Positions 40,346 through 41,170 of a stretch of DNA of 54,751 bases are shown piece after piece. The stretch lies in the IMG/VR virus record IMGVR_UViG_2579779067_000001; one strand, given 5' to 3'. The notes under the pieces were generated by a model that saw only the letters and a program-made list of their open reading frames with translations, was not told where the DNA came from and made no database searches. This stretch comes from a virus (taxonomy: Duplodnaviria; Heunggongvirae; Uroviricota; Caudoviricetes). The stretch's first letter is position 1, and every line of letters begins with the position of its first letter. The position numbers and the translations under genes are program-made.

Positions 40346-41170
40346 TCAAAAATTAGGTGAGTAACGGACCGGGGACATAGCTCCTTTTTTTCTTAATTCA
40401 TCTGGTATTTTTTTCCCAAGATAAAGATTTGCTATTTCAGGTGGGGCTTCTCGACCTTCAAAACCATAGCGAGAACTTTGTGTTGCCTCAAAGTCAGGAT
40501 CCTCGTCCCAGTATTTCATCGTAGGGAAATTTTCACGTGTTGATTTGAGCCATTTATCAGCAATAAAAACCCCTCGAACGATGCCCCTTACAGTGGCAAG
40601 AATGACTTCTGCTTGGCTGGCGCGAGAGACATTAATGCGCCAGCTAAATCGAACCGCATCATAAAGCTCTGAATCCTTTGCACTTCTGTTAACGGAAATC
40701 ATTAATGCTTTATGATGAAATGTTATGGTTTCGGGTTGATATGTTGCTATCAACTCTTTGACATGCGCGGCGCCGAATTCATTGCTGCCAGCACCATTCA
40801 TGATATTCGTTAACCCAGGGTAGGCATCAATAAGTGCTGCTTCAACTTCGTACGCCGTCTTTTCATCAGTCATTCCATGTCGATGGATTACATGGATAAC
40901 TTCAAGTCCCGCTAATCTTATTTCTCTGATTTGCTTTAGCTTGTTGCTCAGTAACTCGTCATCATCAGCCGCTGCCACTTCACCGCGCATATGGGCAAAT
41001 ACGCGGTTACCTTTGCCTTTCCCTACATAGAAGGTGCTTCCGTCCCTAGGATCAATCAATCGGTATACATACCAGCCAAGGTGTTCAATTACTCCAGAAG
41101 GAAACTCAGTAATATCCATTTTGCAATATCTGTGAATTATTTGTGAGACGTATATTAATGAACATTGCAA
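40346..41170 (-). CDS. GIY-YIG-like nuclease domain protein
   Basis: 274-aa track ORF (TTG start; ATG at 41119); [28 protein letters not shown] resembles GIY-YIG core (YhbQ WFLYLIRTADNKLYTGIT...R..H). Confidence 0.55.

Follow-up and report, generated by a model that had tools for sequence, protein, structure and literature searches.

The window, that is, the whole stretch of 54,751 nucleotides that was analyzed, is DNA from E. coli. An exact 47-bp att repeat corresponding to the 3′ part of tRNA-Thr(CGU) occurs in it twice, as attL at 1399-1445 and as attR at 42602-42648, and the two copies bound a prophage of about 41 kb at thrW. The prophage integrase gene lies at 1459-2622 on the minus strand and a CI-like repressor is encoded at 6606-7298 on the same strand. 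In its structural region the prophage shares 97% nucleotide identity with the Shigella serotype-converting myoviruses SfII, SfI and SfIV. The 417-aa ORF of the aldehyde dehydrogenase family beside the prophage (1-1254) is taken to be proA. The sequence-only reading had placed a nuclease-like gene in a cargo block, and this placement is correct: an O-acetyltransferase gene, the nuclease gene, which is designated CMoRE in the following, and a DUF6650 gene are situated between the tail-fibre assembly gene and attR. CMoRE and the acetyltransferase gene are transcribed leftwards, in integrase direction. Cargo and integrase are laid out in the same way in the lambda b region. The features of this end of the prophage are as follows.

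38728-39795, minus strand: O-acetyltransferase gene of the accessory block (O-antigen, serotype-conversion position)
40287-40326, minus strand: hairpin-only copy of the upstream element, 19 nt past the CMoRE stop codon (direct repeat D1, inverted repeat I7)
40346-41119, minus strand: CMoRE (PD-T4-3) coding sequence, 257 aa, stop codon at 40346-40348
40349-40762, minus strand: C-terminal domain that senses modified cytosine; it contains Y127 and spans about residues 120-257 (limits estimated), assigned by identity to 9U75 and 9U7U
40790-41077, minus strand: GIYxY-YIG nuclease domain (PF22945, residues 28-110) with Y17, Y19 and Y31 present
40955-40966, minus strand: acidic autoinhibitory loop D52-D53-D54-E55, read from the sequence; role deduced from the 4A mutant of a homologue
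41152-41180, minus strand: tentative sigma-70 promoter (TTGTGA, 17 nt, TAATAT), read from the sequence, with the -10 box 33 nt before the ATG
41295-41404, minus strand: conserved non-coding prophage element of about 95-110 nt, its 3′ end being the hairpin at 41315-41350
41758-42234, plus strand: gene for a DUF6650 protein of the accessory block

Several further features of the region were recorded. A 60-nt direct repeat (88% identical; 38514-38572 and 42466-42525) brackets the three-gene cargo block, and each of its copies contains the hairpin AAGCCTCGCAATGG(T/C)TTGCAAGGCTTT; a similar sequence is located just past tI in lambda. Within the prophage, a two-gene insert of low GC content (36-39%) occupies 13549-15751 on the minus strand. 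The insert codes for a 395-aa protein (phrog_5023), whose match to the NCBIfam model DS1_2_antiphage is sub-threshold (E 1.6e-19, 70 bits vs a cut-off of 315), and for a nucleoid-associated protein of the NA37 family (14717-15751). Directly after attR a P4-like satellite follows in tandem (42649-54751), which contains the following features.

42812-43978: P4-like integrase
46239-46811: Psu
46885-47385: Delta
47382-48134: 250-aa ORF in the position of Sid, with no Pfam match
48887-49531: Ash
48994-49279: CI-type RNA matching the Rfam families C4, isrK and c4-a1b1
51393-53063: alpha-type primase

The satellite also carries a 531-aa ORF (44050-45645, minus strand) in DNA of 30-33% GC that separates its P4-type integrase gene from psu. 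Searches of Pfam, PHROG, PADLOC and NCBIfam returned no match to it, and its N-terminus displays a PD-(D/E)xK-like D...ECK pattern. The integrase-psu interval is what we take to be a known defence hotspot of P4-like satellites, and the ORF is a candidate for an uncharacterised defence gene.

According to the ORF listing of the window, the minus-strand ORF of 274 aa (40346-41170, counted from a TTG codon) is real and contains the motif string that had been reported for it, and it is conserved. The start codon had been left undecided between TTG at 41170 and ATG at 41119. The ATG, which gives a protein of 257 aa, is supported by the profiles of PADLOC PD-T4-3 (1-255 of 256) and phrog_5356 (1-255 of 255), both of which begin at its methionine, and by CDSs of 774 nt annotated in RefSeq at the equivalent place in several E. 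coli genomes. Moreover, counting from this ATG reproduces the published Y17/Y19/Y31 numbering. In the related contig L089, the extension from TTG to ATG is interrupted by an in-frame TGA and also contains a 3-nt insertion, while the 257-aa frame is intact. The TTG start was therefore rejected on the basis of the profile ends, RefSeq, the published numbering and the in-frame stop in L089.

The protein is identical to a RefSeq protein (WP_000355479.1, in genome L007). A search with defence-system HMMs assigned it over its whole length to PADLOC PD-T4-3 (PDLC04031; E 2.2e-140), residues 1-256 being aligned to profile positions 1-255 of 256, and phrog_5356 likewise matched at full length (E 2.9e-143). 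There is no NCBIfam model for the protein. The resemblance to the GIY-YIG core that had been noticed at the N-terminus was verified by the Pfam family LEM-3_GIY-YIG (PF22945), which covers residues 28-110 with 54 bits against a cut-off of 27 (E 2.4e-14). The generic GIY-YIG model PF01541 scored 13.7 and stayed below its cut-off of 22.6, so that the superfamily threshold is reached with the subfamily model only. A sequence search of the PDB revealed 9U75 from E. coli O157:H7 as a gapless end-to-end match (E 1e-172) with 254 of 257 residues identical (98.8%), and 9U7U from APEC O1 as 85.2% identical over all 257 residues, again without gaps. The GIY-YIG fold is seen in the crystal structures of the 98.8%-identical protein. 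Judged by these matches, the ORF is a copy of CMoRE (PD-T4-3), a single-gene defence nuclease of E. coli that was already known, and no observation spoke against this family assignment.

PD-T4-3 was renamed CMoRE in the paper describing its structure, in which it reduced plating of T2, T4 and T6 by about 5 logs (PMC12923530). The enzyme degrades only DNA containing 5hmC or 5ghmC, and T4(C), a T4 with cytosine only, is fully resistant to it (PMC12923530). Cleavage follows the pattern CN11/N9G and leaves 2-nt 3′ overhangs; two modified sites are needed, and beyond the two modified cytosines there is no strict sequence requirement (PMC12923530). Function requires a tetramer (PMC12923530). The GIYxY-YIG domain is N-terminal, and published mutants lack both defence and nuclease activity (PMC12923530). 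Four consecutive acidic residues form a lid on the active site, and the corresponding 4A mutant is toxic and cleaves ordinary DNA (PMC12923530). The C-terminal domain has an unprecedented fold and binds 5hm-dCTP, which is hydrogen-bonded to the Y127 main chain; sequence and structure searches were reported to give no homologues of this sensor domain (PMC12923530). The description of the C-terminal 200 aa as a segment of unknown function is thus outdated, since the solved homologues identify it as a domain that senses 5hmC and 5ghmC. The C-terminal CMoRE fold predicted for the window protein is taken from these homologues.

The residues named in the structural work were located in the window protein. 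Numbered from ATG 41119, it retains the GIYxY-YIG motif including the third tyrosine (GWY17VY19...FY31VG), and R80, V92, L96, Y127 and the acidic loop are present as well. It differs from 9U75 at three positions, having E55 in place of D, Q169 in place of K and N197 in place of H. E55 belongs to the acidic loop, which reads DDDE as in the APEC O1 protein, and Q169 and N197 fall in the sensor domain; N197 is also found in the APEC O1 protein. Because the coding sequence is intact and every named functional residue is kept, we infer that this copy would be active. The CMoRE mechanism was demonstrated with near-identical proteins and is extended to the window allele on these grounds. In this mechanism, whose steps were shown experimentally for the 98.8%-identical protein, the C-terminal domain would bind DNA with 5-hydroxymethylcytosine or glucosyl-hydroxymethylcytosine, and the N-terminal GIYxY-YIG domain, as a tetramer and dependent on Mg2+ or Mn2+, would do the cutting. 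Where two modified cytosines are spaced about 21 bp apart, the enzyme would cut at distances of about 11 nt and 9 nt from them and produce 2-nt 3′ overhangs. The acidic loop, DDDE in the window protein, would cover the active site, and ordinary host DNA would for this reason remain uncut. Incoming genomes of the T2, T4 and T6 type would be destroyed directly, leaving host DNA undamaged. Two independent studies, on a PD-T4-3 deletion in the isolate NILS69 and on a Capnocytophaga homologue (see below), are in agreement with the published mechanism.

The target range might be wider than modified cytosines. A modification-dependent nuclease that also acts on other hypermodified bases, such as the carbamoylmethyl-adenine of Mu, would have targets beyond the T-even phages. 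At high concentration, a Capnocytophaga homologue (48% identical) breaks down Mu DNA, and cells in which it is induced are defended against Mu; in K-12 the E. coli system also restricts a Dhakavirus. Against such a range speaks the Mosigvirus LF82_P8, which is unaffected. We consider the broader specificity improbable and regard a CMoRE directed against hmC or ghmC DNA as the appropriate description of the window protein.

Expression signals of the gene were less clear. The candidate promoter at 41152-41180 matches 8 of 12 consensus positions; this is under the threshold of the consensus scan, which consequently did not report it, and no minus-strand promoter passed in the scanned region (39800-42300). 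Inspection of the sequence before ATG 41119 displayed no evident Shine-Dalgarno sequence. A 92-aa ORF at 41175-41453 (minus strand) was considered as a gene and rejected, as it matches no Pfam or PADLOC family and is unannotated in RefSeq. In the published experiments, the O157:H7 gene with its native promoter conferred about 5 logs of defence, whereas defence was weak when the APEC O1 gene was under its own promoter (PMC12923530). Given the latter result and the missing consensus promoter and Shine-Dalgarno sequence, expression from this prophage is only presumed.

The same observations bear on whether the copy is silent or decaying, its coding sequence being intact yet unexpressed from this prophage and its strain unprotected. 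Apart from the signals just described and the weak APEC O1 promoter, a silent copy would fit with an upstream hairpin that may block read-through from the prophage end, and with the phage NIC06_P2, which evades the system at its native level in NILS69, whereas it does not escape a plasmid copy in K-12. However, none of the 20 related loci that were compared has a broken reading frame, and the amino-acid changes number 0-4. Furthermore, the 146 bp adjoining the CMoRE ATG are 96% identical in O157:H7 strains, the source of the native promoter with strong defence; these two observations are also the sole indirect support for the candidate promoter. In NILS69, a natural isolate and native host, deletion of PD-T4-3 has a phenotype, as it raises plating of Tevenvirinae phages. 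A silent gene is very unlikely, and a functional CMoRE copy is the reading followed here.

CMoRE is widespread in E. coli. At a nucleotide identity of at least 95%, its coding sequence is present in 838 of 5426 complete genomes (about 15%), so that the ORF is conserved. Nearly all of these copies are chromosomal and bear the annotation "LEM-3-like GIY-YIG domain-containing protein". In the collection of cultured-phage records, the CMoRE gene was found in none, and only the upstream element of about 100 nt was matched. Comparison of eight annotated E. coli loci displayed different flanking genes. The upstream neighbour is strain-dependent and encodes DUF6650, a 315-aa hypothetical protein, a lipase-family protein, an AraC regulator, an FlxA-like or a SIR2-family protein; the downstream neighbour is an acyltransferase gene, an IS3 element or pinE. 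Since the neighbouring genes change between strains, CMoRE has no fixed partner and lies beside a variable slot. It is a single-component system, and no partner gene is conserved beside it.

The slot upstream of CMoRE (41500-42330) is hypervariable between strains, and other unannotated ORFs occur in it as well. It looks like a hotspot for defence or accessory genes. The DUF6650 gene that occupies it in the window belongs to phrog_29952 and matches neither PADLOC nor NCBIfam models.

The sequence-only reading had left two options for the gene, a free-standing homing endonuclease and a single-gene defence nuclease, and the match to PD-T4-3/CMoRE decides for the latter. A GIY-YIG homing endonuclease of the T4 Seg or I-TevI type, which cuts a specific site in a competing genome and thereby spreads its own gene, would agree with the GIY-YIG domain, a weak match to the 'homing endonuclease' family phrog_314 (E 0.0022, residues 17-149) and the mobile element carrying the gene, but we give this option next to no credence, as Pfam at E up to 1 detected no DNA-binding module (NUMOD, IENR1, zinc finger or HTH), the C-terminal half is a modified-cytosine sensor in the solved structures, cleavage by the homologue needs only two modified cytosines and no strict sequence, and the gene lies outside introns and interrupts no conserved gene, being prophage cargo beside unrelated variable genes.

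The non-coding DNA on both sides of the gene was analyzed as well. A stretch of higher GC content rich in inverted repeats had been described at about 41280-41460. The elevation is real but mild, with a GC content of 0.459 at 41280-41460 as compared to 0.362 at 41120-41279 and 0.407 at 41461-41757; the inverted repeat was recovered as a conserved hairpin at 41315-41350. On the minus strand this hairpin folds at -26.9 kcal/mol (z = -3.0). The hairpin downstream of the gene (40287-40326) folds at -15.9 kcal/mol (z = -2.3) and is 81% identical over 36 nt to the upstream one.

The upstream hairpin is part of an element that 3150 of 5426 E. coli genomes contain, each at up to 7 places; more than 120 viral contigs have it too. 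In HK97 (L130, 2501-2600) the element begins directly 3′ of the tI hairpin annotated as sib. Like the sib-tI region, the HK97 element lies in int transcriptional direction and has an RNA hairpin at its end. In contrast, its sequence is separate from sib/tI, and lambda does not have it; the homology between lambda and HK97 stops right after tI, at lambda position 27529. In other lambdoid prophages a DinI-like gene is situated next to attR, and the element comes immediately after the stop codon of this gene. Further copies were located in L004 (1620-1718 and 4002-4101). Paired copies bracket cargo, which is CMoRE in the window and two hypothetical genes in UTI89.

Covariation was examined in an alignment of 64 distinct element copies. 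The inner six stem pairs were fixed by the search pattern and are therefore uninformative, while the six outer pairs were free. Compensatory changes occurred in this outer stem: one pair is C-G in 28 copies, U-A in 25 and U-G in 6, and the next one A-U in 31, G-U in 18 and G-C in 10. Outer stem cells were paired in 97.6% as compared to 23-50% when the 3′ partners were slid, and 38 cells had changed on both sides vs 12 +/- 8 in shuffles. As many G-U pairs can pair only on the CMoRE sense strand, the data point to a structure formed at the RNA level.

The consensus scan of 39800-42300 found no site for an intrinsic terminator. In the window, the hairpins are followed by GGGUUUCGAGAC and CAACUCC and by no U tract; in most other element copies the terminator-like UUUCAUUUAU follows the stem. 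An Rfam search gave no match at gathering thresholds and nothing overlapping 41290-41410 at E up to 5, and the downstream hairpin had no match either. No named small RNA at the position of the element was found in the literature. DinR is a small RNA cut from the 3′ end of dinI that pairs with ftsZ (PMC10907235). The analogy to DinR was discarded, as the element was predicted to pair with the E. coli ftsZ leader at an energy no better than that of shuffled sequences, and the element also occurs without any dinI gene, namely in HK97 and in the window. RefSeq places "capsid protein" pseudogene fragments over the element (41331-41411, plus strand; L002, L003, L007). We judged them to be a spurious short protein match because the element is non-coding and its conservation follows the RNA hairpin. 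The capsid-fragment annotation in many genomes looks like a propagated mis-annotation.

To define the limits of the cassette, 20 other CMoRE-carrying loci were compared to the window. In 12 of the 20, homology starts at 40285-40287, at the edge of the downstream hairpin. On the other side, the end points are 41316 and 41329 within the upstream hairpin, 41414 at the end of the element, and 41494-41506. These homology breakpoints delimit a minimal shared unit of about 1.03 kb (40285-41316) that is bounded by hairpins. CMoRE forms a self-contained accessory cassette in the b-region-like end of an SfII-like prophage. The flanking hairpins would delimit the CMoRE transcript, and they would act as homology patches for swapping cassettes between prophages. 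The downstream hairpin probably forms both the 3′ end of the CMoRE transcript and a recombination joint. More speculative, and in our estimation rather doubtful, is the idea that the element and its hairpin copy constitute a hitherto undescribed RNA module with a function in lambdoid and Sf-type prophages, be it a small RNA, a 3′-end or a processing signal, and perhaps also a homology patch that exchanges defence and virulence cassettes (CMoRE, nleC and others) at the b-region end.

Taken as a whole, the locus is explained with high confidence as a CMoRE nuclease directed against hmC or ghmC phage DNA, whose gene an SfII-like prophage at thrW carries as a self-contained accessory cassette. The gene itself is already known: it is characterised, its structure is solved, standard HMMs find it and RefSeq annotates it. 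The flanking hairpin element is the sole unexplained part. For the source strain, resistance to T-even phages whose DNA contains hmC or ghmC is predicted, which is relevant to the choice of therapy phages. What the analysis adds is anatomical, as copies of the hairpin element mark the recombination joints of cargo genes in many prophages.

Among the characterised systems, CMoRE of O157:H7 (9U75, 9U8D) agrees with the window protein in length, architecture and GIYxY-YIG motif; it also has an acidic loop, V92 and L96 at the tetramer interface and Y127 in the sensor. It is prophage cargo as well, in that case adjoining pinE and tail-fibre genes. The flanks differ, with AraC and pinE in O157:H7 and the acyltransferase and DUF6650 genes in the window, and the homology between both loci stops inside the flanking hairpins, at 40285 and 41316. 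CMoRE of APEC O1 (9U7U, 9U7Z) forms the same tetramer with the same ligand site as the O157:H7 enzyme and shares the DDDE loop and N197 with the window protein. In contrast, it is distinguished from the latter by 38 substitutions, mostly in the C-terminal domain, and by its weaker native-promoter defence. PD-T4-3Capno, the Capnocytophaga homologue, was obtained by metagenomic selection. Like CMoRE it is a modification-dependent GIY-YIG nuclease whose active-site mutants are dead, and it degrades T4 DNA but not T4-GT7 DNA. It differs in its sequence, with the 48% identity to E. coli PD-T4-3 given above, and in its action on Mu DNA at high dose. Other type IV enzymes targeting hmC or ghmC include the PvuRts1I/AbaSI family, GmrSD and McrBC. 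As in CMoRE, one part reads the modification, and a nuclease linked to it cleaves at a fixed distance; enzymes of the PvuRts1I family likewise place their cuts about 11-13 and 9-10 nt away from two modified cytosines. The nuclease folds of these enzymes, however, are PD-(D/E)xK or HNH and unrelated to the GIY-YIG fold of CMoRE.
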